A stretch of 64,000 nucleotides of DNA, taken from Gammaproteobacteria bacterium. Lineage in GTDB: Bacteria; Pseudomonadota; Gammaproteobacteria; 21-64-14. The stretch's first letter is position 1; each line of letters begins with the position of its first letter. The stretch spans positions 88,975 to 152,974 of the forward strand of contig JALUXX010000056.1 of the NCBI GenBank assembly GCA_027013145.1. Direction: 5' to 3'. Of this stretch, positions 23,825 to 56,570 are shown piece by piece. The notes below the pieces were generated by a model. It ran no database searches and was not told where the DNA came from. It was given only the letters and a program-made list of their open reading frames with translations. Made by a program: the position numbers and the translations under genes.

Positions 23825-23870
23825 ATGGTGGGCGATGCTGGGATCGAACCAGCGACCCCTGCCGTGTGAA
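23825..23870. repeat. Distal att direct repeat, a partial duplicated 3' half of tRNA-Val(CAC)
   Basis: Identical to 56495-56540. Not part of a complete tRNA here. Confidence 0.8.
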
Positions 23871-25185: not shown

Positions 25186-26187
25186 ATGAACCGCGCGGAG
25201 CGCATTTACCGGCTGCATGCCGTCCTCGCCAGGGGGCGGACGGTTTCGATGCGCAGGCTCATGGAGGAATTGGATGCTTCCCGCGCCACGGTGGTGCGCG
25301 ACATTGCGTATCTGCGCGATTTCATGGGTGCCCCCATCCGCTACGATCGCGAGCGTAACGGCTACGGGTATGAGCCCGACGCACCGGAGTTTCAACTCCC
25401 CGGTCTGTGGTTCAACGACAGCGAGCTCTACGCGCTCCTTGCCAGCGAGCAATTGCTGGATGCGGTGCAGCCGGGCCTTCTTGGTCCTTATATTGGTCCG
25501 CTCAAGGCGCGTATCCGCGGGTTGCTTGAGCAGAGCGGTCATACCGCGGATCTCGTCAGCTCCCGCGTTTTGCTCCGCCCCTTCGCCCGGCGCCAGGTAG
25601 ATGACGAAATCTTCGGGCGCGTGTCCGCCGCGGTGCTGAGCGGGCATACGCTCGAAATTCAGTACCACGGCCGCGAACGCGAGGCGGTCAGCCGGCGGCG
25701 GATCCACCCCTACCGGCTGCTCCACTATCGCGACAACTGGTACCTGATCGCTTGGTGTGAACGGGCCCGTGGACTACGGACATTTTCCCTGGATCGCGTC
25801 CTTGCGGCCGCCGACACCGGGCAGGCCGTGCGCAAAGTCGAGGAAGCTACGCTCGACCGTCATCTCGGGGCCAGCTTCGGCATTTTTACCGGCGAGGCGA
25901 GTGCTTGGGCAGTTCTCCGGTTCACGCCGGAGCGTGCCCGCTGGGTTGCCGATGAGAACTGGCACCCGGACCAGATTGGGCGATGGGTCGGAGAGAGCTA
26001 CGAACTCCAGGTTCCGTACTCTGATGCGCGCGAGCTTCTGATGGATATCTTGAAGTACGGCCCCGATGTCGAGGTCCTGGCCCCGGATTCGTTGAGAAGC
26101 ATCGTCGCGGAGCGGCTATGCCGCGCGGCGGCTCGCTACGGCACTGCCCCGCATCCACCCCGTCCGGCCGGACCCGAAGCGGCGTGA
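25186..26187 (+). CDS. WYL-domain transcriptional regulator (HTH-WYL-WCX), a putative regulator of the adjacent cas operon
   Basis: N-terminal wHTH (MNRAERIYRLHAVLARGRTVSMRRLMEELDASRATVVRDIAYLRD), central WYL region (HPYRLLHYRDNWYLIAWCERARGLRTFSLDRV) and a C-terminal extension. Located immediately upstream of cas3. Confidence 0.75.
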   Translation: MNRAERIYRLHAVLARGRTVSMRRLMEELDASRATVVRDIAYLRDFMGAPIRYDRERNGYGYEPDAPEFQLPGLWFNDSELYALLASEQLLDAVQPGLLGPYIGPLKARIRGLLEQSGHTADLVSSRVLLRPFARRQVDDEIFGRVSAAVLSGHTLEIQYHGREREAVSRRRIHPYRLLHYRDNWYLIAWCERARGLRTFSLDRVLAAADTGQAVRKVEEATLDRHLGASFGIFTGEASAWAVLRFTPERARWVADENWHPDQIGRWVGESYELQVPYSDARELLMDILKYGPDVEVLAPDSLRSIVAERLCRAAARYGTAPHPPRPAGPEAA

Positions 26188-26981: not shown

Positions 26982-29384
26982 ATGGCATTTCACGATTTCT
27001 TCAACGAAGCATATGGCAAATCCGGCGATCGGGCGTTCGAGCCATACTCTTACCAACGTCGTCTAGCTGAAGAGCCATGGCCGCATCTGCTAGACGTGCC
27101 GACCGGCATGGGAAAAACCGCGGCGGTGGTCCTTTCCTGGATATGGAAGCGTGGCTGGCGGCAAGGTGCGCGCGGCGGCGGACTCGATCCTCAAACTCCG
27201 CGCCGTTTGGTCTACTGCCTGCCCATGCGCGCGCTGGTAGAACAGACAGTGGCCAATATAAAGAGCTGGCTGAAACACCTCGATCTATGCGGCGAGCCCG
27301 GTGAAAAAAAGATCAGCATCAACGTTCTGATGGGCGGCGATGAGCACGCCCGCAAGGCCGAATGGACGAGCTATCCAGAAGAAGACGCCATTATCGTCGG
27401 TACGCAGGATATGTTGCTCTCGCGCGCCCTGATGCGCGGCTATGGTATGAGCCGCCACCAATGGCCCGTCCACTTCGCGCTGTTGCACAATGATGCGCTG
27501 TGGGTATTTGACGAAGTTCAGTTGATGGGTGCGGGGTTGGTCACTTCTGCTCAATTGGAGGCCTTCCGCCGCGATTTTCCACTTGCCAAAAACAGTCGTA
27601 CGCTCTGGGTGTCCGCCACGCTGAATCGCGACTGGCTGGGCACGGTGGACTTTCAGCCCCACATAGATATGCTTATCACGCACGCAATCGGGAACGAAGA
27701 CCGGCAGCAGGCCGGTGACCGGCTGCAGGCGCAGAAGTCGCTTGCGAAAGCCGATATTTCGCTGTCGCAGGACGCCGGCAACAAGGCGGGGTTGCAAACG
27801 TACCTGGAGAACCTGCGCGACCTGGTGCTGCAAGCGCACGATCCCGCTACGCAAACGCTGGTCATCGTTAATCGCGTCGAACGGGCGCAGCGCTTGTTTC
27901 GGCTGCTGCGTGACAGCCGGCCGGACAAGGCTGATCTTCTGGTCCATGCCCGGTTCCGAGCCGCCGAACGTTCCGAGCAAGCGAGCTGTCTGCGCGATGA
28001 CGATAATGTAGACCGCATCGTCGTCGCCACACAGGCCGTCGAGGCTGGCGTGGACATTTCCTCAAAAATATTGGTGACCGAGCTGGCGCCATGGCCTTCC
28101 ATGGTGCAACGCTTCGGTCGCTGCAATCGATATGGAGAGCACAATGCGACAGGCGCGCGCATCCTGTGGGTGGATATCGAGGATGACAAGGGCTTGTCGC
28201 TTCCCTACGAGCGCGAAGCGCTATCCATTGCGCGTGACAAGCTGAATGGGCTTGATAACGCTTGTCCGCAACACCTTCCGCCCACCGATACGGCGCGACT
28301 GCTCACCGCCGTGCTGCGCCGCAAGGATCTGCTCGACCTGTTCAATACCGAGCCCGACCTGTCCGGCTTCGACGTGGACGTTTCCGATTACATCCGTGAC
28401 ACCGGAACGCCCAGCGTGCAAGTATTCTGGCGCGAATTCGGGAACGATCCGAACACCCCAGAACCGCAAGGCAGGCCTAGTCGCAGAGACCTATGTCCCG
28501 CGTCTCTAAGCCAAGCCAGGGAATTCGCCAAGCGCAAAGACGTTACTCTTTGGTGCTGGGATATGCTTGACCGCCGATGGGCGAAGCTCATACGCGATCC
28601 TCGTCCCGGGATGATCTTGCTCGCACATTCGGTAAGCGGAGGTTATGACAGAGATATTGGCTTCGATCCGGCATTAAAAACACCTGTTTCCGCCATTGAG
28701 GTCGAACAGGTACCCGAAGAAGACGCCTTTTCCGAAGACTGGCGTTCATATCAGAACAAGCCAGTGCCACTGGCCGATCATTTGAGCCACGTGGCTGCCC
28801 AAGCTGACAAACTATGCTTGGCGGTGGGTGAGACATCACATCGCGGCATCGTTGTACGTGCCGGACGCTGGCACGATCTCGGCAAAGCGCACGAAATCTT
28901 CGACGCCACCATGCATGCTTGCGACAAGGCGCCTGCCGGCTTTCTCGCCAAATCGCCCTGCAATGGTCGGCACAGTCGCAAGTTCTTCCGTCACGAACTG
29001 GCCTCCATGCTCGGCTGGTTGGCCCAGCACAATGGTGAACCCGATGCTGATCTGATCGCCTACCTGATTCTGGCCCACCACGGCAAGGTGCGCATGAGCC
29101 TGCGCGCTATGCCTGGTGAAGAAGCGGGCAATGGCGTCAAGCGCTTCGCACGTGGTATCTGGGAAGGTGACGCCCTGCCCGCATTGGGTTTCGATGGTGA
29201 GCACAGCAATGCAACCACACTCAAGCTTGCGCTGATGGAAATCGGCGAAGGCGAGCAAGGACCTTCCTGGACCGAGCGCAGCCTGAACCTGCTGGATCAC
29301 CACGGTCCGTTCCGATTGGCGTGGTTGGAAACCTTGGTGCGCTTGGCCGACTGGCGCGCTTCGGCTGAGGAGCAGCAGCCGTGA
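26982..29384 (+). CDS. cas3: Cas3 helicase-nuclease with C-terminal HD domain (type I-G/I-U architecture)
   Basis: Helicase motif I VPTGMGKT and DEAH-like DEVQ. C-terminal HD motifs (GRWHDLGKAHEIF, LILAHHGKVR) follow the helicase, which is the I-U/I-G hallmark. Confidence 0.85.
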   Translation: MAFHDFFNEAYGKSGDRAFEPYSYQRRLAEEPWPHLLDVPTGMGKTAAVVLSWIWKRGWRQGARGGGLDPQTPRRLVYCLPMRALVEQTVANIKSWLKHLDLCGEPGEKKISINVLMGGDEHARKAEWTSYPEEDAIIVGTQDMLLSRALMRGYGMSRHQWPVHFALLHNDALWVFDEVQLMGAGLVTSAQLEAFRRDFPLAKNSRTLWVSATLNRDWLGTVDFQPHIDMLITHAIGNEDRQQAGDRLQAQKSLAKADISLSQDAGNKAGLQTYLENLRDLVLQAHDPATQTLVIVNRVERAQRLFRLLRDSRPDKADLLVHARFRAAERSEQASCLRDDDNVDRIVVATQAVEAGVDISSKILVTELAPWPSMVQRFGRCNRYGEHNATGARILWVDIEDDKGLSLPYEREALSIARDKLNGLDNACPQHLPPTDTARLLTAVLRRKDLLDLFNTEPDLSGFDVDVSDYIRDTGTPSVQVFWREFGNDPNTPEPQGRPSRRDLCPASLSQAREFAKRKDVTLWCWDMLDRRWAKLIRDPRPGMILLAHSVSGGYDRDIGFDPALKTPVSAIEVEQVPEEDAFSEDWRSYQNKPVPLADHLSHVAAQADKLCLAVGETSHRGIVVRAGRWHDLGKAHEIFDATMHACDKAPAGFLAKSPCNGRHSRKFFRHELASMLGWLAQHNGEPDADLIAYLILAHHGKVRMSLRAMPGEEAGNGVKRFARGIWEGDALPALGFDGEHSNATTLKLALMEIGEGEQGPSWTERSLNLLDHHGPFRLAWLETLVRLADWRASAEEQQP

Positions 29385-29879
29385 AGCTCGCTGCCTTCGA
29401 CGCAGTCGCAAAGGCGCTGGATGCCGCACAGGTACGCTACCTCGTGGCCGGCGGTCTCGCCGTCAACGCGCACGGCTACGTCCGTTTGACCATGGACATC
29501 GATCTGGTGATCGCGCTGGATGCCGCCAATATCCGCCAAGCGTTCCAAGCCCTGGCAGGGATCGGTTATCGCCCCACCGTGCCGATCGACGCGGACGCCT
29601 TCGCCAGACCGGAACAACGCCAGCGCTGGCGGGAAGGAAAGGGCATGCAGGTGCTCAATTTCCAAAGCGACGCCTTCCCTGGCACCTCGGTGGACGTATT
29701 CGTCTACGAACCGTTCGATCTCGCAGAAGAATACGACATCGCCCTGTGTGGCGAACTGTTGCCGGGCATTTACGTGCGCTTTGTGTCCATCCCTACCCTG
29801 ATTCGCATGAAGCAAGCGGCTGCCCGCCCGCGCGACCTGGACGACATCCAGCACCTCAAGTGGTTGCAGGAGAATCCCG

Positions 29880-29887
<8 letters not shown>
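29381..29887 (+). CDS. Minimal nucleotidyltransferase-fold protein inserted between cas3 and csx17 (function unknown)
   Basis: 168 aa. LVAGGLAVNAHGYVRLTMDIDLVIA resembles the hG[GS]...DhDh NTase motif, and the later IRMKQAAARPRDLDDI resembles NTase C-terminal motifs. Its start overlaps the cas3 stop and its stop overlaps the csx17 start. Confidence 0.45.
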
Positions 29888-33411
<3,524 letters not shown>

Positions 33412-33414
33412 ATC

Positions 33415-34905
33415 ATGCTCGCCTTGTCCTTCACCTTTCCCGCGGGACGCTACCATGCCACACCCTGGGACCGGCATGTCAACGAAGGCGCCGTGGCATG
33501 GCCGCCGGAACCATGGCGGATCCTTCGCGGGCTGATTGCCACTTGGCATTGCAAGGTCAAATACAGCGGAAGGTATAGCGAAGCCGCACTGCTAGGCCTG
33601 ATCGAAGCGTTGACGCAGGAGCTGCCTGAATACGGGCTACCCACGGCGAGTCACAGCCATACTCGTCATTACATGCCGCAGTTCGCGACTGATAAGACGT
33701 CGCTGGTCTTGGACGCGTTCACAGGTGTCAAACGTGACGAGGCATTGACCGTGGTTTGGCCGAATGCAGAGCTTTCCAAGGACCAAGTTGATCTGCTGGA
33801 CGAGCTGTTGTTCGTCATGGGCTACCTTGGTCGCGCTGAATCCTGGGTGGAGGCAAAGCGCCTCACCGATGCGCCGGAAGTCAACTGTAAGCCCGACGCA
33901 ACGCCGCTGGATACCGGAACCGGCGAGCTGAAAGGTGAAACTGTAACCCTCTACGCCCCCTTGTCGCCGAACGAATACCAGTCACTGCGCCAGAGGTTTC
34001 TTGCCGACAAAAAGTCTGCAAAGAAGCTGGAAACGACGCTTCCTGAAGGATTGCTTCACGCGCTCAGCGTGGATACAGCGGAACTGCGCAAGCAGGGCTG
34101 GAGCCAGCCGCCCGCCGCACGCAGGGTCAGCTACGTGCGCCCTGTCGATGCACTTCGGCCGCGCTACGCCACGCCTCGCATACAGGTCCCCGATGCCACC
34201 ACCGGGAGTTTTATTGTCGTCGGCAAACCTTTGCCCCGAGTGGAGGAGGCGTTACGCATCGGCGAGCTGATGCGCATGGCGGTCATGAGTCAGGCGAAGC
34301 GCATATGCGGCGAAGACAAGGTGCCGGCCATTCTCTCAGGTCATGAAATGCCTGAAGGCAATCGTCATCGACACGCCTTTTACCTGCCCTGGGACAGCAA
34401 CCACGACGGGCGCATCGACCGCGTGGTGGTTCACGTGCCGGATGGCATGGAGGCTGACCAGCAGCGGATTGTCGAAAGCGTCAGAAGGCTATGGAGTCGA
34501 GACGGTGGCGAGTGGCGTCTGGTTTTGGAGAGTATCGGCGGTACTGGAATCGCGAACACTCTGACACAACCCAGCAGGGTTTGGGAGTCCGTCACGCCGT
34601 ACCTGCATCCCTGGCACGTCAAGAAGCATTTTGGGGTTGTGGCGCAGATCAAACGCGAATGCCGCGAGCGCGGCTTGCCCGAGCCGGCGATTCTGGAATC
34701 GTTCGATAAAGTGGAGGTGGGCAAGAACCGGGAACGACGCCCGATTCATTTCCGGCGCTTCCGCAACCGACGCGGCTTCACGCAACCCGACCGATTGGGC
34801 AGCTTCTGGCGCCTTAGTTTTCCGGAGCCTGTGGAAGGACCGCTAGCCCTTGGGTTCGCTTGCCACTTTGGCCTTGGGCTTTTCGTTCCTGTCGGCGATA
34901 CCTGA
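33415..34905 (+). CDS. csb2: Csb2 (Cas5-Cas6 fusion, type I-G)
   Basis: 496 aa. N-terminus MLALSFTFPAGRYHATPWDRHVNEGAVAWPPEPWRILRGLIATWH is typical of Csb2/GSU0054. Glycine-rich C-terminal loops and an AGGAGG RBS. In I-G loci the Cas6 function resides here. Confidence 0.7.
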   Translation: MLALSFTFPAGRYHATPWDRHVNEGAVAWPPEPWRILRGLIATWHCKVKYSGRYSEAALLGLIEALTQELPEYGLPTASHSHTRHYMPQFATDKTSLVLDAFTGVKRDEALTVVWPNAELSKDQVDLLDELLFVMGYLGRAESWVEAKRLTDAPEVNCKPDATPLDTGTGELKGETVTLYAPLSPNEYQSLRQRFLADKKSAKKLETTLPEGLLHALSVDTAELRKQGWSQPPAARRVSYVRPVDALRPRYATPRIQVPDATTGSFIVVGKPLPRVEEALRIGELMRMAVMSQAKRICGEDKVPAILSGHEMPEGNRHRHAFYLPWDSNHDGRIDRVVVHVPDGMEADQQRIVESVRRLWSRDGGEWRLVLESIGGTGIANTLTQPSRVWESVTPYLHPWHVKKHFGVVAQIKRECRERGLPEPAILESFDKVEVGKNRERRPIHFRRFRNRRGFTQPDRLGSFWRLSFPEPVEGPLALGFACHFGLGLFVPVGDT

Positions 34906-35125: not shown

Positions 35126-35527
35126 CTAGAGGCGAATGACCCGAACGAGTTTTCCGAGGGCGGCGAAGTCGGACGGGTTGCGGGTATAGAGCGGTAAGCC
35201 GTTGGCCGCAGCGGTCGCGGCGATGAGCAGGTCGGCAAGGCGGGCGCGGGGCGCTTGGCCCGCCGCGCGCACGGCAGCGAAGGCGCGGCCGTACATGCGC
35301 GCGGCATCGGCATCGAAGGGCAGGGGATCCCAGGTCGCCGCGGCCCATTGCAGGCGATCCTGGCGGCGGGCGCGCTCATCCGCATCGCGTGTGGCGTGCG
35401 GCCCGGCTGCGAGTTCGGCGAGCGTCACGGCGGAGATGGCGGATTCGTCCGGAAGCAGGGATGCGTCGATTACGTCGTGGTCGATGACCACCGACGTATC
35501 CAGCAGGCCGCGGCTCGGCTCAGCCAT
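35126..35527 (-). CDS. vapC: VapC toxin (PIN-domain ribonuclease)
   Basis: MAEPSRGLLDTSVVIDHD... with acidic PIN residues (D at the N-terminus, ...AELAAG..., ...DLLIAATA...NGLPLYTRNPSDF). Its start overlaps the antitoxin stop (ATGGCTGA). Confidence 0.8.
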   Translation of the reverse strand: MAEPSRGLLDTSVVIDHDVIDASLLPDESAISAVTLAELAAGPHATRDADERARRQDRLQWAAATWDPLPFDADAARMYGRAFAAVRAAGQAPRARLADLLIAATAAANGLPLYTRNPSDFAALGKLVRVIRL

Positions 35528-35768
35528 CGACCGATGGATCGATCACTGCGTCCAGATCGGCGCGAAAGCGTTCGGCGTCGATCCGGGGTGCCCGAGCGGC
35601 GGCCTCGGCGATGGTCGCCCGGGGCACATACCGGCGCGGCTGGATCGGCCGCAGTTCGGCGATGGGGACGCCGTTGCGGGTGACGATGATCGTCCGCCCC
35701 GCCTGCACCTCGCGCAACACCTTTGCGGAGGCGTTACGCAACTCCCGTTGATTGATGACCTTTTCCAT
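35520..35768 (-). CDS. Phd/YefM-family type II antitoxin
   Basis: MEKVINQRELRNASAKVLREVQAGRTIIVTRNGVPIAELRPI is the canonical Phd/YefM N-terminus. Start trimmed to the ATG at 35768. Confidence 0.7.
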   Translation of the reverse strand: MEKVINQRELRNASAKVLREVQAGRTIIVTRNGVPIAELRPIQPRRYVPRATIAEAAARAPRIDAERFRADLDAVIDPSVDG

Positions 35769-36383
35769 GCGCCGAATGTAGCATATGTAGCACAATGTAG
35801 CAAACTATACCGGCCGTGAGCGGGTGGGGCGAGGGGCATCAATACAACATGATGGTTTTATTTGGTATTCCGTTTGGTGCCTTGCTTTGGCGTCCCCCTG
35901 CATCCGTTGCCGACTGGTCCGGAAATGGCGGTGGTATATCGCTGCCGACTTCGCGAATCGCCGTTCAGGCTTCGGGTTACCGGCGGGCGCCCGTTCGTAC
36001 TGGGCGGCGACCCGAAACAGGTCATGATCACCGGCAGCCCGATCGTTCGCAATGCCGAGGCGTTGTGGCGTTCCATTCCCACCTGTAGGAGAACTCATGG
36101 AAGACGGCGAATCCCAGGCAGAAAATCGGGCAGGCCAACCGCGCATTTGCTCGCCCTCTACACGCATTCGCGACGGTATCGCGTCGGAGGGGCGAGATCG
36201 CTGGTGCGTCCTCATGGCCACGAGGCTGGAATTGCGGTTGTGTCGGGGGCGCGCGCCGTGTCTTGTATGCCGAGCCCGTCTGCGTGTGGCCGTCGGATCC
36301 CCGCAATCGGATCTTAAGGCCTGCCCAGGCGTGTCGATTACGGGGAAGGGATATGGAAGCCATCTCGCCAAGAGGGAGCGCCG

Positions 36384-38093
36384 ATGGACGAACCGCGCCA
36401 GGGGGAACTCCCCATGCCGTTCCCGGACCTTTCCGGGGACATGCCGCTGTTGCCGGCCCGAATGGTCAACGAGTACGAATACTGCCCGCGGCTCGCTTAC
36501 CTCGAATGGGTACAGGGGGAGTGGGCAGACTCGGGTGATACGGTTGAGGGCCGTCATGCCCACCGCCGCGTGGACCGCCCAGGTGGACGGCTCCCCGAAT
36601 CCAGCGGCGATCCGGCCGAGCGCTTGCACGCCCGCTCCATCACACTTTCCTCAAACCGCCTCGGCTTGATTGCCAGGATGGATCTGGTCGAATCGGAAGG
36701 TCACACCGTCACGCCTGTGGATTACAAGCGCGGCAAGCGCCCGCACGTGGCCAAAGGCGCCTACGACCCGGAGCGGGTTCAGCTCTGCATCCAGGGTTTG
36801 ATCCTCGAGGAACACGGTTACGCGTGCCCCGAAGGCGTACTCTATTTCTCCGGATCCCGCGAGCGTGTCCGTGTCGTCTTCGACGAGGAGTTACGCATTC
36901 AGACCATGGCGGCGGTCGACGGCCTCCGACTTATAGCGGCTGGCGGGCAAGTTCCGCCACCACTTCAGGACAGCCCAAAGTGCCCACGCTGCTCGCTGGT
37001 GTCCATCTGTCTTCCGGATGAGGTCAACTTCCTGCACAGCGGAAAACTGGAACCACGTCCGATGGCGGTCGGGCGGGACGAGAGCCTTCCGCTCTATGTC
37101 CAGGCCAATCGCGCGAAAGTCGCGAGGAAAGGGGAAACCCTGGAGATCACGGTGGACGACGAAAAGGCCGCATCGGCCAGGCTGCCGGAGGTGTCCCAGC
37201 TCGTGGTGATGGGTAACGTCTATGTCACGACGCCGACGCTGCATGAGCTCATGCGCCGCGGGATTCCGATTACCTGGTATTCCTACGGTGGCTGGTTCCT
37301 TGGCCACAGTATCGGTACCGGGCACAAGAACGTGGAGCTGCGGACCGCACAGTACCGTGCTAGCTTCGACAGCCGGGCCTGCCTGCATCTGGCTCGCGAT
37401 CTGGTGCGCGCCAAGATTCTGAACTGTCGAACGCTACTCAGGCGAAACTGGCGCGGAGAAAAATCGGTTGATTCGGTACTCGCGCTATTGAAACGAGATG
37501 CGGAAGCCGCTTTGCGGGCGAGTAATCTCGAGACGCTGTTGGGAGTGGAAGGCGCTGCCGCTTCGCGGTATTTTGGATCGTTCTCCCAGATGATCAAGCC
37601 GGAAGGCGATTCGAGCTCATTCTCCTTCGACTTTTCGCGGCGCAACCGTAGACCACCGACCGATCCTGTAAACGCGTTACTTTCATTCGCGTACGCTATG
37701 CTGACGCGCGTCTTTTCAGTGGTCCTGACTGCCGTAGGTTTCGATGCCTACCGCGGCTTCTATCACCAACCTCGCTATGGTCGTCCGGCTCTGAGCCTTG
37801 ACATGATGGAGCCGTTTCGCCCGCTACTGGCCGATTCCAGCGTACTCACCGCAATCAATAACGGTGAGGTCCGCCCAAGCGACTTTGTTTCGGCCGCAGG
37901 CAGCGTCGCTCTGAGCGCGGATGGACGTAAGCGGTTTATTGCGACCTTCGAGCGGCGTTTAAGCCACGAGGTGACTCATCCGCTGTTCGGCTACCGGGCT
38001 AGCTATCGGAGGGTGTTGGAGATCCAGGCTCGGCTGTTGGGGCGCCATCTGCTGGGTGAGTTGACTGAGTACCCTAATTTCCTGACGCGATGA
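36384..38093 (+). CDS. cas4-cas1: Cas4-Cas1 fusion protein (adaptation module of type I-G)
   Basis: N-terminal Cas4 RecB-nuclease with Cys motifs (EYEYCPRLAYLEW...; CPRCSLVSIC). C-terminal Cas1 (...LVVMGNVYVTTPTLHELMRRGIPITWYSYGGWFLG..., catalytic E/H/E region). An alternative start is the Met at 36414. Confidence 0.85.
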   Translation: MDEPRQGELPMPFPDLSGDMPLLPARMVNEYEYCPRLAYLEWVQGEWADSGDTVEGRHAHRRVDRPGGRLPESSGDPAERLHARSITLSSNRLGLIARMDLVESEGHTVTPVDYKRGKRPHVAKGAYDPERVQLCIQGLILEEHGYACPEGVLYFSGSRERVRVVFDEELRIQTMAAVDGLRLIAAGGQVPPPLQDSPKCPRCSLVSICLPDEVNFLHSGKLEPRPMAVGRDESLPLYVQANRAKVARKGETLEITVDDEKAASARLPEVSQLVVMGNVYVTTPTLHELMRRGIPITWYSYGGWFLGHSIGTGHKNVELRTAQYRASFDSRACLHLARDLVRAKILNCRTLLRRNWRGEKSVDSVLALLKRDAEAALRASNLETLLGVEGAAASRYFGSFSQMIKPEGDSSSFSFDFSRRNRRPPTDPVNALLSFAYAMLTRVFSVVLTAVGFDAYRGFYHQPRYGRPALSLDMMEPFRPLLADSSVLTAINNGEVRPSDFVSAAGSVALSADGRKRFIATFERRLSHEVTHPLFGYRASYRRVLEIQARLLGRHLLGELTEYPNFLTR

Positions 38094-38097
38094 AGCC

Positions 38098-38388
38098 ATG
38101 GAGGAGAGGCTTTACATCGTCACCTACGATATTGGAGACCAGAAGCGCTGGAGGGCCGTGTTCAAACTCATGCACGGGTACGGCGAGTGGCTCCAGCTAT
38201 CCGTATTCCAGTGCCGGCTCAGCCGGAGGCGGCACGCGGAACTGGTTGCTACGCTCGACCAGATCATTCATCATAAAAGCGACCATGTGCTGCTCCTGGA
38301 TCTTGGACCAGCCGACGGCGTGGTTCCGCGGGTGATAAGCCTCGGGAAGGATTTCAATCCGGTGGTGCGAGAACCGATCATTGTCTAA
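38098..38388 (+). CDS. cas2: Cas2
   Basis: MEERLYIVTYDIGDQKRWRAVFKLMHGYGEWLQLSVFQCRLS is canonical Cas2. 96 aa. Directly precedes the CRISPR leader. Confidence 0.85.
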   Translation: MEERLYIVTYDIGDQKRWRAVFKLMHGYGEWLQLSVFQCRLSRRRHAELVATLDQIIHHKSDHVLLLDLGPADGVVPRVISLGKDFNPVVREPIIV

Positions 38389-38590
38389 GCTCGCCGGAGA
38401 TTTTCGAGGGGTGCGGTGCCGCTCATAACCCGGGTAGCGCTCGCGGTTCAGTAGCTCTTTGAAAATATGGAATTTTATAGCCAGTGTCCCAGCGATCCGT
38501 GGCATCGCGACTGCACGCCCGCCGCTTTCGGCCCAACCGCTCGCAATGTCCGGGAGACGGTGGCTGTTTTCCAGTACTTGCGGACGGGCT
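38389..38590 (+). promoter_or_regulatory. CRISPR leader
   Basis: ~200 bp between cas2 and the first repeat. Contains an AT-rich stretch (ctttgaaaatatggaattttatagcc) unusual for this genome. The repeats end in ATTGAAGC on the + strand, consistent with transcription from this side. Confidence 0.5.
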
Positions 38591-41500
38591 GTATTCCGCA
38601 GCATCACGCTGCGGCCTCATTGAAGCTCGACGATCGGCGCGCCCTGCCAGTAGACGTATGCGGTATTCCGCAGCATCACGCTGCGGCCTCATTGAAGCAA
38701 GCAAAACATCGCCGGGGAACAACTCCTCGTCGCCGTATTCCGCAGCATCACGCTGCGGCCTCATTGAAGCGACGTCGAGCAGGTCGGCGCTTCCGATGCG
38801 TCCCTGATCGTATTCCGCAGCATCACGCTGCGGCCTCATTGAAGCGTGCTATGGGGGCGATTGTCGAGCCATATACCACCGTAGTATTCCGCAGCATCAC
38901 GCTGCGGCCTCATTGAAGCCCGTAACCGTCAAGCCGGTCGATACTACACCGAGTGTATTCCGCAGCATCACGCTGCGGCCTCATTGAAGCCGGCACTACC
39001 TGAACCGCCCTTCATGTATTCATACAGGTATTCCGCAGCATCACGCTGCGGCCTCATTGAAGCCGTACAGCGTGGTGTTGATGGGCTGCCGCCGATTACT
39101 GTATTCCGCAGCATCACGCTGCGGCCTCATTGAAGCGAGACAACCAGATGTTGTCAGCGAGCCAAAACACTAGGTATTCCGCAGCATCACGCTGCGGCCT
39201 CATTGAAGCTAGGTGCGCGTCGAGGTGCCGTCCAACGTCGCGGGGGTATTCCGCAGCATCACGCTGCGGCCTCATTGAAGCACGCCGTACTAGCGGTTGT
39301 AAGTTGAACGTGAACACGTATTCCGCAGCATCACGCTGCGGCCTCATTGAAGCACTACGGCTGCAGGCACGCCGTGCTCTCTGTACATCGTATTCCGCAG
39401 CATCACGCTGCGGCCTCATTGAAGCTTCAACGCCGCCACCGCTGCAGTATCTGCCGCCGGGTATTCCGCAGCATCACGCTGCGGCCTCATTGAAGCGACC
39501 AAACAAAGGGGGGAGTTACTTTGGCACCTTTTGTATTCCGCAGCATCACGCTGCGGCCTCATTGAAGCTGAGGTGCCGCTCTCGGACGTGATCAAGAGCT
39601 ACCAGGTATTCCGCAGCATCACGCTGCGGCCTCATTGAAGCCCTGATGAATTGATCGGAATGTTTCCCCATTATGCAGGTATTCCGCAGCATCACGCTGC
39701 GGCCTCATTGAAGCGGTGCCCTACGCAGACGGCTGGGCGGCCGGCGGATCGACGTATTCCGCAGCATCACGCTGCGGCCTCATTGAAGCTCCAGCACGTA
39801 CTGGCGCGCCCGTGTCTGCCCCTACCGGTATTCCGCAGCATCACGCTGCGGCCTCATTGAAGCGCGGCGAGAACTCCGAGATCTGGGTCACGTTCAATCC
39901 GTATTCCGCAGCATCACGCTGCGGCCTCATTGAAGCGTCGTCGCGCACCCGGCCAAAATACCCAGGGAGGGAAGTATTCCGCAGCATCACGCTGCGGCCT
40001 CATTGAAGCACGGCATCGACCGCCTGCTTCGCCTGCTTGGCGGTGGTATTCCGCAGCATCACGCTGCGGCCTCATTGAAGCAAGTGGTGCCCGTTCTGCG
40101 GCTGGGCCATCAACGTGCTGTATTCCGCAGCATCACGCTGCGGCCTCATTGAAGCGTCTTTTCGCAGCAAAGTCTTCCCTGTCAGAGACGCGGTATTCCG
40201 CAGCATCACGCTGCGGCCTCATTGAAGCTACCTCTCGTTCGTGGATTGACGTTATTAAATGCACCGTATTCCGCAGCATCACGCTGCGGCCTCATTGAAG
40301 CGATCGAGTCAAAAGACGAGGGGTTGGTTCCGTTTCGCTGTATTCCGCAGCATCACGCTGCGGCCTCATTGAAGCACGGTGCGGGAACCAATAACCGCTA
40401 CACCAGCAGACGTATTCCGCAGCATCACGCTGCGGCCTCATTGAAGCCCCGCCAGTAATGCGGTTCCTGCTTCCCGCTTCCCTGGTATTCCGCAGCATCA
40501 CGCTGCGGCCTCATTGAAGCTAAAGGCGGTTTGCCTTTTCTAATTATGGGTCAAATGGTATTCCGCAGCATCACGCTGCGGCCTCATTGAAGCGTCGGAT
40601 ATGCGTACCGCTTGCGTGCGCTCTCCAGGGTATTCCGCAGCATCACGCTGCGGCCTCATTGAAGCATATCAACACCAAATTGCTTCATTGGCATTGATAT
40701 ACGTATTCCGCAGCATCACGCTGCGGCCTCATTGAAGCTTCGCTTCTTTTCTTGATATGATTTTTTTCATGATTGTATTCCGCAGCATCACGCTGCGGCC
40801 TCATTGAAGCCCTGGCGAAATGGAGCGCAATCAACGAGTTGGTGGACGTATTCCGCAGCATCACGCTGCGGCCTCATTGAAGCGCTGAGATCGTGGCGCA
40901 GGAGGTGGCACGGTTCAATGTATTCCGCAGCATCACGCTGCGGCCTCATTGAAGCACGCTTTCGCGCTCACGTGGGGGATGGCGTTTGGTCGTATTCCGC
41001 AGCATCACGCTGCGGCCTCATTGAAGCTCGGCCAGGGTTGCCATGCCGTTCTTTGAATCCCTCGTGTATTCCGCAGCATCACGCTGCGGCCTCATTGAAG
41101 CACGACACTCCAGCACCTGACCGATCAAGACAGGTTGGTATTCCGCAGCATCACGCTGCGGCCTCATTGAAGCTTATAGTTGATGGGTGAACGTCGCGGA
41201 CGGCTTTCATGGTATTCCGCAGCATCACGCTGCGGCCTCATTGAAGCCGACAAAATGGCTATTCTGAGAGGCAAAGAAGCTCTGTAGTATTCCGCAGCAT
41301 CACGCTGCGGCCTCATTGAAGCCCGACAATCGAAACCGAAACGCGCGAAATTTTTAACGTATTCCGCAGCATCACGCTGCGGCCTCATTGAAGCGGCTTT
41401 ATCTTCTACCGCTTCCGCTTTTGCTTCCGCTGTATTCCGCAGCATCACGCTGCGGCCTCATTGAAGCTAGGGAAGCTGTGATGTATAAAATCTTTCCTCG

Positions 41501-42049
41501 GTCGTATTCCGCAGCATCACGCTGCGGCCTCATTGAAGCAACTTGATGCCCTTCGCATCCTTGACGATTGCCATCGTATTCCGCAGCATCACGCTGCGGC
41601 CTCATTGAAGCGTGCCCTCCTTTCCTGGCGGCGGCGAACCACCGACGATGTATTCCGCAGCATCACGCTGCGGCCTCATTGAAGCCGGACGGGTCGGGCG
41701 GGTGCGCGAATCGGTTCAACATGTATTCCGCAGCATCACGCTGCGGCCTCATTGAAGCTTTTCCACGGTCAGTCCTCCTCGTAGTCGTCGACGTAGGTAT
41801 TCCGCAGCATCACGCTGCGGCCTCATTGAAGCGCAAGCTGAACGGTCACGGAATGCTGGCCTACGGCGGGTATTCCGCAGCATCACGCTGCGGCCTCATT
41901 GAAGCTGCTCGTCTCCTTACTGCTCTATGTCCGCCGCGCCAGGTATTCCGCAGCATCACGCTGCGGCCTCATTGAAGCCAGACCACGCGGTCCCCGTTCA
42001 CCGATACGGAGTTGTATTCCGCAGCATCACGCTGCGGCCTCATTGAAGC
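38591..42049 (+). CRISPR. CRISPR array, proximal part. ~48-49 copies of a 36-nt repeat GTATTCCGCAGCATCACGCTGCGGCCTCATTGAAGC.
   Basis: Exact 36-nt repeats with a period of ~71-73 bp and 35-37-nt unique spacers. The repeat has a CCGCAGC/GCTGCGG palindromic core and an ATTGAAGC 3' handle, resembling type I-U repeats that end in ATTGAAAC. Confidence 0.95.
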
Positions 42050-42076
42050 ATTCCAACTGGTGACGGTGTTTTTTTA

Positions 42077-43399
42077 GGTTCATCGCAGAAGTCCGGGGAG
42101 GTTGAGCTGGTGAAGCTGGCTCCGTACCGTTGCGCTGTGGCGACGACGGGGGGTGGGGCCATGTTTGACAAGGGTACTTTGAGCGAGCTGGGTGGCTGGA
42201 CGGGCTACCGGGTTGCGGACCTGGAGTACCGGCCCGGTGAAGGCTGGATGGGGCGAGGCAAGTTGCTGATCCGGTTGGAACCTCGCGGCCAGACGATGCG
42301 CTGCTCGCGCTGCGGGCAGGAGAGCCGGTCGGTGCATGACACCACGGTCAGGCGCATCCGCGACCTGCCCATTCTGGACTGGGATGTGGTGTTGATCGTC
42401 CCGCGCCGGCGGCTGTGGTGCGGGCACTGTGGTGGTCCCCGTCTGGAAGCGCTGGAGTGGCTGTCGGCGCACCGCCGGGTGACGCGGCGGCTGGAGGAAG
42501 CCATCGGGCGGCTGAGCCGGATGATGCCGTTGAAGCAGGTGGCGGCGTTCTATGGCGTGGGCTGGCACACGGTCAAGGCCATCGACAAGGCCCTGCTGGA
42601 GCAGGGGGTGCTGGAGCCCGACTGGCGCGGCATCGAGTACCTGGGCATGGATGAGTTTGCCCTGCACAAGGGGCATCGCTATGCCACGGTCATCGTGGAG
42701 CCCCTGCGTCGCCAGGTGCTGTGGGTGGGCGAAGGGCGCAGCCGCGAGGCCATCCGGCCCTTCTTCGAGGGTCTTGACGAGGCCACCCGCCGGCGTATCA
42801 AGGCGGTGGTGATGGACATGAACACCGCTTTCGATCTGGAGGTTCAGGCTCATTGTCCCCATGCGGAGGTCGTCTACGACCTGTTCCACGTGGTGGCCAA
42901 GTATGGCCGGGAGGTGATCGACCGGGTGCGGGTGGATGAGGCCAACCGGCTCAAGAAGGATCGCCCGGCCCGCAAGGTCATCAAGTCTGCCCGCTGGCTG
43001 CTGTTGCGCAACCGGGAGAACCTGGAGACGCCCGAGCAGGCGGTCCGCCTGGATGAGTTGCTGGCGGCGAATCAGGCCCTGATGACGGTCCATGTGCTCA
43101 AGGAGGACCTCAAGCGCCTGTGGCGCTATCGGCATGCCGGGTACGCCAAACGACTCTGGGAAGGCTGGTATCAGCGGGCCATGGAAAGCGCCATCGCGCC
43201 CCTGATGCAGTTTGCCCGGCGCCTGAGACCGTATCTCCAGGGCATCCTGGCCCATTGCCGCCACCCGCTGCACACCAGCGTGCTCGAGGGTATCAACAAC
43301 CGCATCAAGGTCATCAAACGCATGGCCTACGGCTTCCGGGATACCGACTACTTCTTCCTGAAAATCCGCGCCGCCTTCCCCGGAAATTTACGATGAACC
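42077..43399 (+). mobile_element. ISL3-family insertion sequence (1323 bp) inserted in a CRISPR spacer, with an 8-bp target site duplication TTTTTTTA
   Basis: Terminal IRs ggttcatcgcagaagtccgggga and tccccggaaatttacgatgaacc (imperfect, ~23 bp). Flanking direct repeat ttttttta at 42069-42076 and 43400-43407. Single transposase ORF. Confidence 0.8.
42110..43396 (+). CDS. ISL3-family transposase
   Basis: 428 aa. N-terminal zinc-finger region (RCSRCGQESRSVHDTTVRRIRDLPILDWDVVLIVPRRRLWCGHCGG) and a DDE core, typical of ISL3 transposases. GTG start. Confidence 0.85.
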   Translation: MKLAPYRCAVATTGGGAMFDKGTLSELGGWTGYRVADLEYRPGEGWMGRGKLLIRLEPRGQTMRCSRCGQESRSVHDTTVRRIRDLPILDWDVVLIVPRRRLWCGHCGGPRLEALEWLSAHRRVTRRLEEAIGRLSRMMPLKQVAAFYGVGWHTVKAIDKALLEQGVLEPDWRGIEYLGMDEFALHKGHRYATVIVEPLRRQVLWVGEGRSREAIRPFFEGLDEATRRRIKAVVMDMNTAFDLEVQAHCPHAEVVYDLFHVVAKYGREVIDRVRVDEANRLKKDRPARKVIKSARWLLLRNRENLETPEQAVRLDELLAANQALMTVHVLKEDLKRLWRYRHAGYAKRLWEGWYQRAMESAIAPLMQFARRLRPYLQGILAHCRHPLHTSVLEGINNRIKVIKRMAYGFRDTDYFFLKIRAAFPGNLR

Positions 43400-43416
43400 T
43401 TTTTTTAGACCCATTA

Positions 43417-43889
43417 GTATTCCGCAGCATCACGCTGCGGCCTCATTGAAGCCAACGGAGATCGCGGCGCGCAGCCCGTCGGTCGCGTCGGTATTCCGCA
43501 GCATCACGCTGCGGCCTCATTGAAGCTCATCGGGGTGGAACCTTTGAAAATCGGCCCCAGGAACGTATTCCGCAGCATCACGCTGCGGCCTCATTGAAGC
43601 AATTCCAGGAGCCCCGCCGCGCCCGTGATCCGCTCGGTATTCCGCAGCATCACGCTGCGGCCTCATTGAAGCGGCATCGCGTCGACCTCGGTCTGAACCT
43701 GACCGATGTATTCCGCAGCATCACGCTGCGGCCTCATTGAAGCCCGTTCAGTTTCAGGCGGAGGTTGGTCACCTGCGCAGGTATTCCGCAGCATCACGCT
43801 GCGGCCTCATTGAAGCATGTAGGGGGCGGCGGAGTTGAGATTCGTGCCCCATTGTATTCCGCAGCATCACGTTGCGGTCTCATTGAAGC
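43417..43889 (+). CRISPR. CRISPR array, distal part. 7 repeats with a degenerate terminal repeat.
   Basis: Same 36-nt repeat resumes 10 bp after the IS. The last repeat (43854-43889) has 2 mismatches (gtattccgcagcatcacgTtgcggTctcattgaagc), typical of a trailer-end repeat. Confidence 0.9.
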
Positions 43890-45287
43890 ACGCCTCACTT
43901 GACATGATGATGCGCAGGGCCACCGCGGCCTATGCTTTACGCTGTGGGCTTCTGCATTTTCCGGGCCAACGCCCAAACTGGCCGCAGGCGGAATCGGGCC
44001 CCCACCCTTCAGGGTGGGGGCGCCATAGGCTGGCCGGGCCCGAATCAACTGGCCGATTTTCACCATTTGACCTCCTTTCATCGCTACGTTGAACGCTCAA
44101 TCGAGTCGCCGGGAACCACCCCGGCTGCGCCCGGACAACCCGCGGCACCACCCGCAGTATCCGAACGCGCTCACCACCACTTGGACTACCACGCCCAGTC
44201 ACTTTTCGCACACGCCTGGTGCTTTCGACACCGGGGTACCACCCCCCCGGTCGGCTTGCGCCTCTCCCACGGCTTCGACTGAATCGCCGATGAGATTTAT
44301 CGTCTACTCACACCGCTCCCAGCCATAGAACCCGCCCCTTACCGGGGTCAGGATTCCTTAGGCCTTCCCGCGTTAGCTACGAATGTCGCGCGATTAGCCA
44401 GCGCCTCACACAGACGTCGGGGTGTCTTCCACCTCACCGGTCGGTTTTCAGGGGCCCGGGACTCCAAGGCAGCTCCCTTACCGACGTCTGTGCTTGCAGC
44501 TTCAGTCATCCACACGCTTTCGGGTGGAAACTGGCATCATCGAACTCACTCGACAGCGACCTCTGCGGCCGCCGTTACTGGCTTAAGCTATTCTGCGATC
44601 GTCCCAGGTTGCCCCGAGGCGTACCAGCCGTTCCAAGTTTCCTCTTACGGCCTCAAGAAGGTTTCCCTTCCCGCGTGCAGCCCACCAGTCGAGTCCCGGT
44701 TGTACCCTCTCGAGCACCCCCGGGCCGGGATTCTCACCCGTTCATCCGCAGCAGGGTTCCGCCGGTTTCCGTGACAAAGCACGTTCCCCCTTTGGCCCGT
44801 TTCCGCGTCGCCCAGTCCCGCCCCGTCGGGGCGGATTAGGTCGAACATGGCATTGCAGCCATGAGCGCCCGTTGCAGCCGCACCAGCCCAATTACGGGCA
44901 TGCAGCTACGGCGCGTGCACGACTTGGATTGGTGGTCCAAGTCTGGCCGGATGGTTCCGGCCGAGCCCCTTTCGGGGCAGTGACAGTGGTGTCCGGGGGC
45001 TGGTGAGACCCCCACGGAACTACGGTGGTGGACTCGACCCCCGGGCGAGTGTCCGTCGGTGCGACGTACACACTCACCGGTTTCCTATCCCGGTATAGGG
45101 AAAAAAATCGCTCTGGTGTCTCCCTCATAGGAGTCCCTAGTCGTTTGTCCTGAATCGACCCTTGGGAGATTCAAGGCAAACTGTCCGATCAATCGGTTAG
45201 CCTCGCTCCTTCCTGATAGTCGGCCGATGCCGGATTTCCGGACGGTTCGCTATACCCGGGTATCTACCCGAGAGGAGTGAACCGATC
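43890..45287. other. ORF-free, hairpin-dense 1.4-kb segment. Candidate structured ncRNA or degraded element. Identity unknown.
   Basis: No ORF longer than 120 aa with plausible composition on either strand. Many perfect GC hairpins with 3-4-nt loops (ccccaccc-ttca-gggtgggg, gcccc-tttc-ggggc, gccccg-tc-ggggc). On the minus strand, a strong SD+ATG (aaaggaggtcaaATG) sits at 44066-44083 but the reading frame runs into the CRISPR trailer. Confidence 0.3.
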
Positions 45288-55342: not shown

Positions 55343-56347
55343 TCAGGGCTTGGCAAGTTGGTCGAGCTTGTCTATGAGATGCTGGGTGCTTGGATGGGCA
55401 TAGCGCCGAAAGACCCGCATGTCCTTATGCCCACTGACCGCCATCGCCTCGATCACGTTCCAGCCGGCTTCCACCAGGCTGGATACGCGTTCGTGGCGCA
55501 GATCATGCAGTCGAAAATCCTCGAGTCTCGCCCGCATCCGCAGCCGCTTCCAGGCCAATTTCACCGCATTGACGGTGAGCCCCTCGAAGACGTATGTCCC
55601 GCTGCCCGTGAGTCTGCGCAGCCCGCGCAGCGCGGCGGTCGCGCGTCGTGAGAGCGGCACTTGCCGGCCCTGGCCGTTCTTCGTCTGTGCGTCTCGCAGG
55701 CCGATGACACGCTGCTTCAAGTTGACCTGTCGCCACTCGATCCCGAGCAGCTCGCCGCGGCGCATGCCGCTCTCGCGCGCCAGGGTCACGAAGGTCCGGA
55801 ACAGCGGGTTCCGGCACCGGCGAAGCGCGGCGTCCAGGCGTCGGCGCTCGTCGGGATCCAGGCGACGGGTGCGGTTGGGCGAATTCTTGGGGCGATCGAC
55901 ATCCGCCATCGGGTCGTGGGGGAGGAGATGGCGTTTGCGTGCCCGACGCAGGGCGCGGGAGAGGATGGAAAGCTCGCGGTTGACCGTGGAGCCCGAGACC
56001 GTGGTCAGCCGCGACTCGATGTAGTCTTCGATGACGCCGGCGTTGATCTCGGCCAATGACAGCGTGGCGAGGGGGTGGCGCATCATCGCCAGTACGCGTT
56101 TGTTTTCGATGGCGGCCCCGCGGTGCAATGGGACGACCTTGCGCCGGTAGTCCTCCAGGACATCGCTGAGTGTCGTCTGTTGGGCGGCCAGGGTTTCGGG
56201 AAGGGCGCCGAAGTCGATATCCCGTTCTTTGGCGCGGACCCAGGTCTCGGCCTCGCGGCGGGTGTCGAAGGTGGCGGTGAGTGTCGCATACCCGCGCCGG
56301 CGGATTCGGGCTTGATAGGCGCGACCGCGCCGCGTGATGGATGCCAT
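55343..56347 (-). CDS. int: Tyrosine-type phage integrase / site-specific recombinase
   Basis: MASITRRGRAYQARIRRRGY... N-terminal arm-binding/SAM-like domain. C-terminal catalytic region with RHDLRHERVSS...VSGHKDMRVFRRYAH (R..HxxR..Y). GAGGAG RBS. Start trimmed to the ATG at 56347. Confidence 0.85.
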   Translation of the reverse strand: MASITRRGRAYQARIRRRGYATLTATFDTRREAETWVRAKERDIDFGALPETLAAQQTTLSDVLEDYRRKVVPLHRGAAIENKRVLAMMRHPLATLSLAEINAGVIEDYIESRLTTVSGSTVNRELSILSRALRRARKRHLLPHDPMADVDRPKNSPNRTRRLDPDERRRLDAALRRCRNPLFRTFVTLARESGMRRGELLGIEWRQVNLKQRVIGLRDAQTKNGQGRQVPLSRRATAALRGLRRLTGSGTYVFEGLTVNAVKLAWKRLRMRARLEDFRLHDLRHERVSSLVEAGWNVIEAMAVSGHKDMRVFRRYAHPSTQHLIDKLDQLAKP

Positions 56348-56495
56348 ATCGCTTCTCCTCGTCTGTGGGGACAAGGGGTGTAGCGAATGGCGAGGCGGAT
56401 TCGACCGGCGGTCGGGCGAATTTGACCGAATTGGAGCAAATTGGAGCAAATTGCCCCGACGTGCCCGGCCCGGATGCCGTAAGTCATTGAAAACA

Positions 56496-56570
56496 TGGTG
56501 GGCGATGCTGGGATCGAACCAGCGACCCCTGCCGTGTGAAGGCAGTGCTCTCCCGCTGAGCTAATCGCCC
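56496..56570 (-). tRNA. tRNA-Val (anticodon CAC), the island integration target
   Basis: Reverse complement GGGCGATTAGCTCAGCGGGAGAGCACTGCCTTCACACGGCAGGGGTCGCTGGTTCGATCCCAGCATCGCCCACCA. Anticodon loop TTCACAC. Acceptor stem GGGCGAT/ATCGCCC. Its 3' 46 nt are duplicated at 23825-23870. Confidence 0.85.

Follow-up and report, generated by a model that had tools for sequence, protein, structure and literature searches.

An ISL3-family insertion sequence splits one type I-G CRISPR array within a spacer

The window, a stretch of 64,000 nucleotides, carries a type I-G cas operon followed by a leader and a CRISPR array that is interrupted by an insertion sequence (IS) (Table 1). All members of the type I-G signature set (cas8g, cas7g, csb2 and cas3g) scored above the curated cut-offs, and the adaptation module is present as a Cas4–Cas1 fusion together with Cas2; as judged by these profile matches, the operon is a complete predicted type I-G set. 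Csb2 is the Cas5–Cas6 fusion that acts as the pre-crRNA endonuclease of type I-G systems (PMC9638904). A PDB search with Csb2 of the present locus returned no sequence match. The combination of cas3g, cas8g, cas7g and csb2 is shared with the type I-G system of Thioalkalivibrio sulfidiphilus (PMC9638904); repeat sequence and proteins are not the same in the two. Unlike that system, the present locus also holds an AbiEii-like ORF and a PIN/Phd pair in the operon interior and lies on a tRNA-Val island.

The array (38591–43889) is built on a 36-nt repeat, GTATTCCGCAGCATCACGCTGCGGCCTCATTGAAGC, that matched 55 times on the + strand and not at all on the − strand, which confirmed the copy number given in a preliminary description of this DNA. 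That description had divided the copies into about 49 before the IS and seven beyond it; the seven distal copies stand, whereas the proximal ones number 48. Identical sequences were found for 54 of the 55 repeats, the sole deviant being the terminal copy (43854–43889), in which the two mismatches reported earlier are indeed seen; both are C-to-T changes, and the hairpin is retained via a G-U pair. The 54 spacers are 35–39 nt long, most commonly 36 or 37 nt (18 and 19 of 54, respectively), and no two are alike, giving the identical fixed-length repeats and unique spacers of similar length that characterize a CRISPR array. Rfam CRISPR-DR16 matched the array on the + strand at 39.2 bits (gathering score 35). 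The 202-bp region before the first repeat was assigned as the leader because it adjoins cas2 and faces away from the degenerate terminal repeat; the polarity proposed before, with leader and cas2 upstream and the degenerate repeat at the far end, is thus upheld. A simple consensus scan of the leader found no sigma-70 consensus promoter. The repeat is predicted to fold into a 7-bp stem with a 5-nt loop and a 12-nt tail (4 + 8 nt) at −13 kcal/mol. In the T. sulfidiphilus type I-G substrate, too, the repeat is 36 nt long and its 7-bp hairpin is followed by 12 nt (PMC9638904); the matching geometry of the predicted fold would be consistent with Csb2 cutting 4 nt beyond the stem and leaving an 8-nt 5′ handle.

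Table 1 Features of the cas operon, the array and the inserted element (positions in the window).
Feature	Position	Strand	Evidence or remark
WYL-domain HTH regulator, upstream of cas operon	25186–26187	+	Pfam WYL 5e-21, WCX 3e-14, HTH_11
cas3g, helicase–HD nuclease fusion	26982–29384	+	NCBIfam TIGR02621 type I-G Cas3g, 4.9e-235, 783 bits vs cut-off 400
cas8g / csx17	29880–32363	+	NCBIfam TIGR04113, 2.9e-158
cas7g / csb1; metagenome gene call starts at 32389	32296–33411	+	NCBIfam TIGR02570 5e-35; Pfam Cas_GSU0053 5e-42
csb2	33415–34905	+	NCBIfam TIGR02165 3.4e-64, full length
cas4g/cas1g fusion	36384–38093	+	NCBIfam NF049935 1.1e-248, 826 bits vs cut-off 560
cas2	38098–38388	+	NCBIfam TIGR01573 9e-10; Pfam CRISPR_Cas2 5e-17
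Leader, 202 bp, AT-rich stretch inside	38389–38590	+	Sequence; between cas2 and first repeat
Array part 1, repeats 1–48 and intact spacers 1–47	38591–42049	+	Repeat matches, Rfam
Disrupted spacer 48, left part (27 nt); last 8 nt (42069–42076) are TTTTTTTA	42050–42076	+	Sequence, repeat positions
ISL3-family IS, 1323 bp; IRL 42077–42099, IRR 43377–43399	42077–43399	+	Inverted-repeat search; identical second copy
Transposase ORF; product of 428 aa (GTG start) or 411 aa (ATG start at 42161)	42110–43396	+	Domain and family profiles
Disrupted spacer 48, right part (17 nt); first 8 nt (43400–43407) are TTTTTTTA	43400–43416	+	Junction also in L003, L007
Array part 2, repeats 49–55 and spacers 49–54	43417–43889	+	Repeat matches, fold of last repeat

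Between the two array parts lies the 1323-bp ISL3-family element announced in the preliminary description, with its transposase ORF at the coordinates given there; re-inspection for inverted repeats and a target duplication found both. The inverted repeats are 23 bp long and imperfect (19/23 identical) and start with GGTTCATCG; IRL reads GGTTCATCGCAGAAGTCCGGGGA and the reverse complement of IRR reads GGTTCATCGTAAATTTCCGGGGA, a pattern matched twice in the window against 0 expected from 100 shuffles. The transposase ORF is intact and co-directional with the array, its stop codon falling within IRR, 4 bp from the IS end, and both possible starts (GTG and ATG) occur as gene calls in public assemblies. 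Its product matched Pfam DDE_Tnp_ISL3 (PF01610, 5.3e-69) over positions 1–240 of 240, the ISL3 HTH and Zn-ribbon domains (PF13542 and PF14690) and NCBIfam transpos_ISL3 (NF033550, 1.3e-108, bit score 363, cut-off 180). Members of the ISL3 family, as defined in ISfinder, have imperfect inverted repeats starting with GG and are about 1.2–2.3 kb long. The present element resembles them in its single DDE transposase with Zn-ribbon and HTH, its size of about 1.3 kb, its GG-terminated inverted repeats and its 8-bp A/T-rich duplication. The closest named relative seen was the ISRta1 family of Cupriavidus plasmids; at 61% transposase identity to it, the element would merit a new IS name, and we judge it to be a putative new IS of a known family. 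Closer unnamed copies (81–92% identical) come from Gammaproteobacteria, Chromatiales, Thioalkalivibrio and Sedimenticolaceae MAGs, and an exact 25-nt IRL query was absent from the 185,579 species-representative genomes of GTDB.

The two halves of spacer 48 that border the element each carry TTTTTTTA, a perfect 8-bp duplication, so that the clean target-site duplication claimed earlier is borne out. Once the IS and one copy of the duplication are deleted, a spacer of 36 nt results, ATTCCAACTGGTGACGGTGTTTTTTTAGACCCATTA, within the rebuilt empty site ...GACGGTGTTTTTTTAGACCCATTAG.... The earlier proposal that the spacer can be reconstructed by removing the IS therefore holds, at a length typical for the array rather than the 37 nt put forward, the 37th base being the first G of repeat 49. 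That the IS had entered an unusually AT-rich spacer is correct as to AT-richness but overstated as to degree, as the 39% GC of the rebuilt spacer is the fourth lowest among the 54 (mean 57%). The target feature that matters is the T7A run, not general AT-richness. Spacer 48 is the seventh counted from the trailer end. The structural reading, a split of one array by an ISL3-family IS, is fully supported.

We consider it highly probable that one continuous type I-G array was split by an active ISL3 element that chose an A/T run in spacer 48. Originally, 54 spacers between 55 repeats would have been transcribed as one array on the + strand, starting at the leader next to cas2, and an active, previously unnamed 1323-bp IS would then have transposed into spacer 48. 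A/T homopolymer runs are very rare in this genome, which has 65–70% GC, and TTTTTTTA in this foreign-derived spacer was among the few on offer. One old spacer would have been destroyed by the insertion, while the 47 leader-side spacers and spacer acquisition were presumably unaffected, and Csb2 would still cut each repeat 4 nt past the 7-bp hairpin to give an 8-nt AUUGAAGC handle. Spacers 1–47 and the rebuilt spacer 48 had no protospacer in cultured phages, the single match (E = 1) being attributable to chance; no protospacer spanning the junction was found in IMG/VR or the cultured phages, and comparison of the spacers with the IS, the window and the fetched loci gave no match beyond chance.

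The fate of the six distal spacers is where an alternative carries the most weight. In the preliminary description, the distal spacers are probably silent or served only by an outward promoter of the IS. On this view the IS blocks the pre-crRNA, and spacers 49–54 are either unexpressed or expressed only from a promoter that arose at the right end of the IS. Such polar silencing is a serious contender, to which we give somewhat less credence than to continued transcription: 1.3 kb of foreign DNA with a translated ORF now separates the leader from the distal repeats, hybrid outward promoters at ISL3 junctions have precedent (PMC13142319), and Rho-dependent termination, beyond the reach of the scans used, leaves room for it. 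Weighing against it, the transposase gene shares the orientation of the array and reaches almost to the IS end, a simple consensus scan of 42077–43926 on the + strand detected no terminator-like site, and the RNA before the right-end T7 run contains no stable hairpin (z = +1.1). At the right junction, inspection by eye and a consensus scan revealed no convincing hybrid sigma-70 promoter, which disfavors expression from the IS right end. Given the co-directional transposase and the lack of a predicted terminator in the IS, read-through is at least as likely as silencing, and transcripts from the leader or the transposase gene would run into the last seven repeats. The six distal spacers would thereby still be transcribed at some level, and the spacer-48 unit would yield a useless transcript of about 1.4 kb.

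The target preference was assessed on 60 copies of related IS for which both GGTTC...GAACC ends and flanking sequence were available. In 42 of these the duplication is perfect, and its constant length of 8 bp in varied sequences confirms the length seen in the array. The duplicated 8-mers are 95% A+T, and 30/42 include six or more consecutive A's or T's. Directly next to the T-run, 30/42 have a hairpin at least as stable as −10 kcal/mol, and mean hairpin energies were −12.1 kcal/mol on the T-run side and −7.0 kcal/mol on the other. These patterns, drawn from relatives with informative flanks at only 53–61% transposase identity, indicate that the clade inserts in A/T homopolymer runs, typically terminator T-tracts; no description of a terminator T-tract preference for ISL3 was found in the literature searched. 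Upstream of the insertion in spacer 48 there is no hairpin (−4.6 kcal/mol); the site is an A/T run rather than a terminator. The window before insertion held only four A7/T7 runs, two of them within spacers of an array that makes up 6.3% of the sequence. Given the A/T-run preference and the rarity of such runs, spacer 48 was a rare preferred target. A broader proposal is that, in GC-rich genomes, spacers taken from AT-rich invaders are among the few sites with the A/T runs that this ISL3 clade seeks, so that CRISPR arrays would systematically receive, or harmlessly absorb, IS drawn to T-tracts, co-directional insertion coupling the transposase to a strong leader promoter and Csb2 freeing its mRNA as a giant 'spacer'. 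We regard this as doubtful speculation; one array, two of four A7/T7 runs in spacers and the preference of relatives are compatible with it and do not establish its generality.

The search for other copies of the IS recommended in the preliminary description recovered one, locus B in contigs L001 and L006, with 0/1323 mismatches to the array copy and located at another A7 run (...GGTCAAAAAAA up to the insertion point). An identical copy at a second site points, indirectly, to recent activity of the element. In other metagenome assemblies, L003 opens 141 nt inside the right end of the IS and extends across TTTTTTTAGACCCATTA into the seven repeats, L007 also contains the right junction, and L002 has the first 19 spacers in identical form. 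All external contigs found by exact-protein look-ups were 100% identical to the window and are therefore from the same strain, so that they support the assembly, not the evolutionary history. No IS-free or sister array was found, and the pre-insertion state is accordingly reconstructed rather than observed: JGI metagenomes searched with the 27-mer of the split spacer and the complete 36-nt repeat yielded the same strain at most, IMG/VR searched with a junction-spanning 22-mer and IRL yielded neither a sister array nor a junction protospacer, and a spurious array ORF used as query matched only other arrays at ≤49% identity. The notion that the source contig lacks the IS was dropped; the 428-aa product is encoded on the 161,314-bp NCBI contig.

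Two identical IS copies could recombine, and two same-repeat arrays merged in this way would leave flanks that had never formed one spacer; the hybrid scaffold L007, which joins the left flank of locus B to the right flank of the array, could in principle be a real recombinant. A recombinant junction would, however, show unlike 8-mers, whereas TTTTTTTA stands on both sides here, the flanks add up to exactly a normal spacer length, and the left flank of locus B is CAAAAAAA, which together make a merger very improbable. We give even less credence to an assembly artefact, in which the assembler put a repeated IS wrongly inside the array or used it to join two contigs. At least two identical copies exist, short-read assemblies break at this IS, and L007 is an example of a chimera, but the perfect duplication, the 36-nt sum of the flanks and the recovery of the right junction in two other assemblies all argue for a correctly assembled locus. 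That the IS specifically targets CRISPR arrays, for which some Tn7-like transposons directed to CRISPR repeats (PMC11837452) and IS6110 hot-spotting in the Mycobacterium tuberculosis DR locus (PMC7820667) offer precedents, is just as hard to credit, since A/T runs, mostly in terminators, are the sites of the second copy and of 42/42 perfect insertions among relatives, none of which is in an array, and the present insertion is within a spacer, not a repeat.

The split of one array by an IS drawn to an A/T run thus remains the preferred reading, a clean but ordinary interruption that leaves knowledge of CRISPR and IS biology unchanged and is mainly useful for annotation. The two parts should be annotated as one 54-spacer array, and the disrupted spacer 48 is recoverable for spacer-based host–virus linking. 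The locus also illustrates why a strict preference for A/T runs brings an IS into the CRISPR array of a high-GC genome, and serves as a natural experiment on the tolerance of a type I-G array for an insertion of 1.3 kb. The arrangement parallels IS6110 in the M. tuberculosis DR (CRISPR) locus, where an IS likewise divides one ancestral array and deletion of the element plus a single copy of its target duplication recovers the interrupted unit (PMC7820667). IS6110 is an IS3-family element with a 3-bp duplication inserted in a repeat of a type III-A system, whereas the present ISL3 element lies, with an 8-bp duplication, in a spacer of a type I-G array.

The break in the type I-G CRISPR array is a well-resolved and recent insertion, and its landing place is accounted for by target preference. 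Repeat matching in the window found the 36-nt repeat GTATTCCGCAGCATCACGCTGCGGCCTCATTGAAGC 55 times, 48 of them upstream of position 42050 and seven downstream of 43416. Fifty-four are identical; the terminal copy carries two C-to-T changes and is the only one missed by Rfam CRISPR-DR16 (54 matches, plus strand). Spacers are 35–39 nt long and all differ from one another. The gap between repeats 48 and 49 measures 1367 nt instead of the usual ~37 nt and consists of a 1323-bp element with 27 nt of spacer on its left and 17 nt on its right. The termini of the element read GGTTCATCGCAGAAGTCCGGGGA and, on the opposite strand, GGTTCATCGTAAATTTCCGGGGA (19/23 identical), a terminal-repeat pattern found in the window only at the element and not expected by chance. 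TTTTTTTA abuts the element on both sides, so that re-inspection recovered both the inverted repeats and the 8-bp duplication of the preliminary description. Removal of the element and one TTTTTTTA does restore a spacer, as had been described, but one of 36 nt (ATTCCAACTGGTGACGGTGTTTTTTTAGACCCATTA) rather than 37 nt, the extra base being the G that opens the following repeat; 36 nt (18/54) and 37 nt (19/54) are the commonest spacer lengths.

Positions in the window of the array, the inserted element and neighboring features
Feature	Position	Strand
CRISPR array (55 repeats)	38591–43889	+
Degenerate terminal repeat	43854–43889	+
T7 run in spacer 30	40761–40767	
Inserted element	42077–43399	
Target duplication, left and right	42069–42076; 43400–43407	
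Transposase ORF	42110–43396	
Terminator-like site	43927–43950	
Region downstream of array	43890–45260	
ORF with AbiEii match	29381–29887	+
PIN-domain toxin and Phd/YefM antitoxin	35126–35527; 35520–35795	−
46-bp direct repeats	23825–23870; 56495–56540	
tRNA-Val(cac)	56496–56570	−
Tyrosine integrase gene	55343–56347	−

Translated from GTG, the transposase is 428 aa long (411 aa if the ATG at 42161 is the start). Its match to Pfam DDE_Tnp_ISL3 spans the full model (5e-69); it also contains the ISL3 HTH and zinc-ribbon domains and scores 363 bits against the NCBIfam model 'ISL3 family transposase' (cut-off 180). Together with the GG-terminated inverted repeats, the 1.3-kb length and the 8-bp duplication, these domains bear out the original ISL3 assignment in every testable feature. 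The nearest named relative is the ISRta1 family (61% identity), and the nearest unnamed relatives, 81–92% identical, occur in gammaproteobacterial MAGs; judged from these relatives, the element is a new member of the ISL3 family. Its 90%-identity transposase cluster has 32 members, mostly from IS-sized metagenome contigs. IS elements within CRISPR arrays are well known. The classic precedent is IS6110 in the M. tuberculosis DR locus, where the interrupted unit was also reconstructed (PMC7820667); the present case differs in its ISL3 element and its type I-G array.

Contigs retrieved from other assemblies through exact-protein look-ups are 100% identical to the window; they confirm the assembly and are not sister strains. 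ENA ERZ27262636 contains one contig with the cas operon and first 19 spacers (L002) and another (L003) that begins 141 nt within the right end of the IS and runs through TTTTTTTAGACCCATTA and seven repeats into 15 kb of downstream sequence. ERZ23491061 scaffold_180353 (L007) has the same right junction as L003 and differs by a single synonymous C-to-G substitution close to the right end of the IS. Another IS copy, with 0/1323 mismatches, follows ...GCGGTCAAAAAAA at a separate site, locus B (L001, ENA ERZ27262636; L006, Logan SRR7968105); hence the IS has at least two copies, and its transposition was recent. At locus B it occupies the final codons of a 47-aa lysine/alanine-rich ORF (MAVKKRATRKKAAPKRKAAKRK...; L001 2853–2996, L006 4130–4273) that adjoins a 1169-aa RP005_N protein, and the C-terminus of the ORF is swapped for IS-derived residues. 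Positions 1–1524 of L007 connect, through the IS, the left flank of locus B with the array's right flank, probably reflecting an assembly path through a repeat; the alternative is a real recombinant between the two copies. No IS-free array was detected in representative genomes, JGI metagenomes, IMG/VR or the protein collection, and no junction-spanning protospacer for the rebuilt spacer 48 in IMG/VR or cultured phages.

To survey target preference, 60 related IS copies were taken from representative genomes and their termini and flanking sequences were located. Perfect 8-bp duplications (42/60) were 95% A+T, most commonly TTTTTTTT, AAAAAAAA, ATAAAAAA, TTTTTTTA and TAAAAAAA, and 30 of the 42 included a homopolymer of six or more A's or T's. 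In 30/42 the T-run was adjoined by a GC-rich hairpin with a folding energy of −10 kcal/mol or lower, with mean hairpin energies of −12.1 kcal/mol at the T-run side versus −7.0 kcal/mol opposite; such hairpin-adjoined runs are predicted T-tracts of intrinsic terminators. Orientation relative to the run was unbiased (~18 T-rich, 24 A-rich). This ISL3 clade (ends GGTTC(A/T)TC..., ~1.3 kb) mostly inserts in intrinsic terminators, at the T-tract immediately behind the GC-rich hairpin, and does so in both orientations. Many copies of this kind are carried by Aeromonas sp. 164P and Pseudomonas sp. MBLB4136.

Neither the insertion site in spacer 48 (−4.6 kcal/mol) nor that at locus B has a hairpin, so a bare A/T run suffices. 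GC across the window is 57–74%, and the pre-insertion sequence holds only four A7/T7 runs, two of them in spacers, with the array making up 6.3% of the sequence. Spacer 48, at 39% GC, ranks fourth lowest of 54. The insertion site thus follows from an ordinary target preference and a rare target in foreign-derived DNA. Nine of the 54 spacers fall below 45% GC in a 65–70% GC genome, which suggests that the invaders behind them were low-GC. Spacer 30, the richest in A+T (25% GC; TTCGCTTCTTTTCTTGATATGATTTTTTTCATGATT), contains a second T7 run, which could serve the same IS as a target but is unoccupied.

Upstream of the array, on the same strand, are genes for a WYL regulator, cas3g, cas8g/csx17, cas7g/csb1, csb2, a cas4-cas1 fusion and cas2, in that order, followed by a 202-bp leader; every cas gene exceeds the curated cut-off of its type I-G model. 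The repeat is predicted to fold into a 7-bp stem, 5-nt loop and 12-nt tail (−13 kcal/mol), a geometry matching that of the type I-G repeat of Thioalkalivibrio sulfidiphilus, where Csb2 cleaves 4 nt past the stem to give an 8-nt handle (PMC9638904). By analogy, the crRNA handle here would be AUUGAAGC. Leader position, degenerate distal repeat and handle all concur with left-to-right transcription.

We infer that spacer 48, an old spacer, has been lost and that the 47 leader-side spacers, the cas genes and leader-end acquisition should be unaffected. The six distal spacers (49–54) had been proposed to be silenced. Continued, possibly reduced, transcription appears somewhat more likely, because the transposase gene has the same orientation as the array (its stop codon lies inside the right inverted repeat), a plus-strand scan of the IS predicted no terminator-like site and the right-hand T7 has no hairpin before it. 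The first terminator-like site beyond the IS, a hairpin with a T-run, lies just past the last repeat, and the ~1.4 kb downstream of the array contain no long ORF or Rfam match. ISL3 junctions can create promoters (PMC13142319); a sigma-70 scan and inspection by eye gave no convincing promoter at the right junction.

A perfect 46-bp direct repeat corresponds to the 3′ half of tRNA-Val(cac), which adjoins the integrase gene. GC is 51–67% (mostly 55–65%) between the two copies versus mostly 65–74% outside them. These repeats, the integrase and the GC contrast place the type I-G locus, array and IS on a ~32.7-kb integrative island. Within the cas operon, csb2 and cas4/cas1 lie 1.5 kb apart, and the PIN/Phd-YefM pair fills this interval on the opposite strand. 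A 168-aa ORF between cas3g and cas8g, overlapping the cas3g stop, has a weak AbiEii nucleotidyltransferase match (1.7e-6) and to our knowledge lies outside the canonical type I-G gene set.
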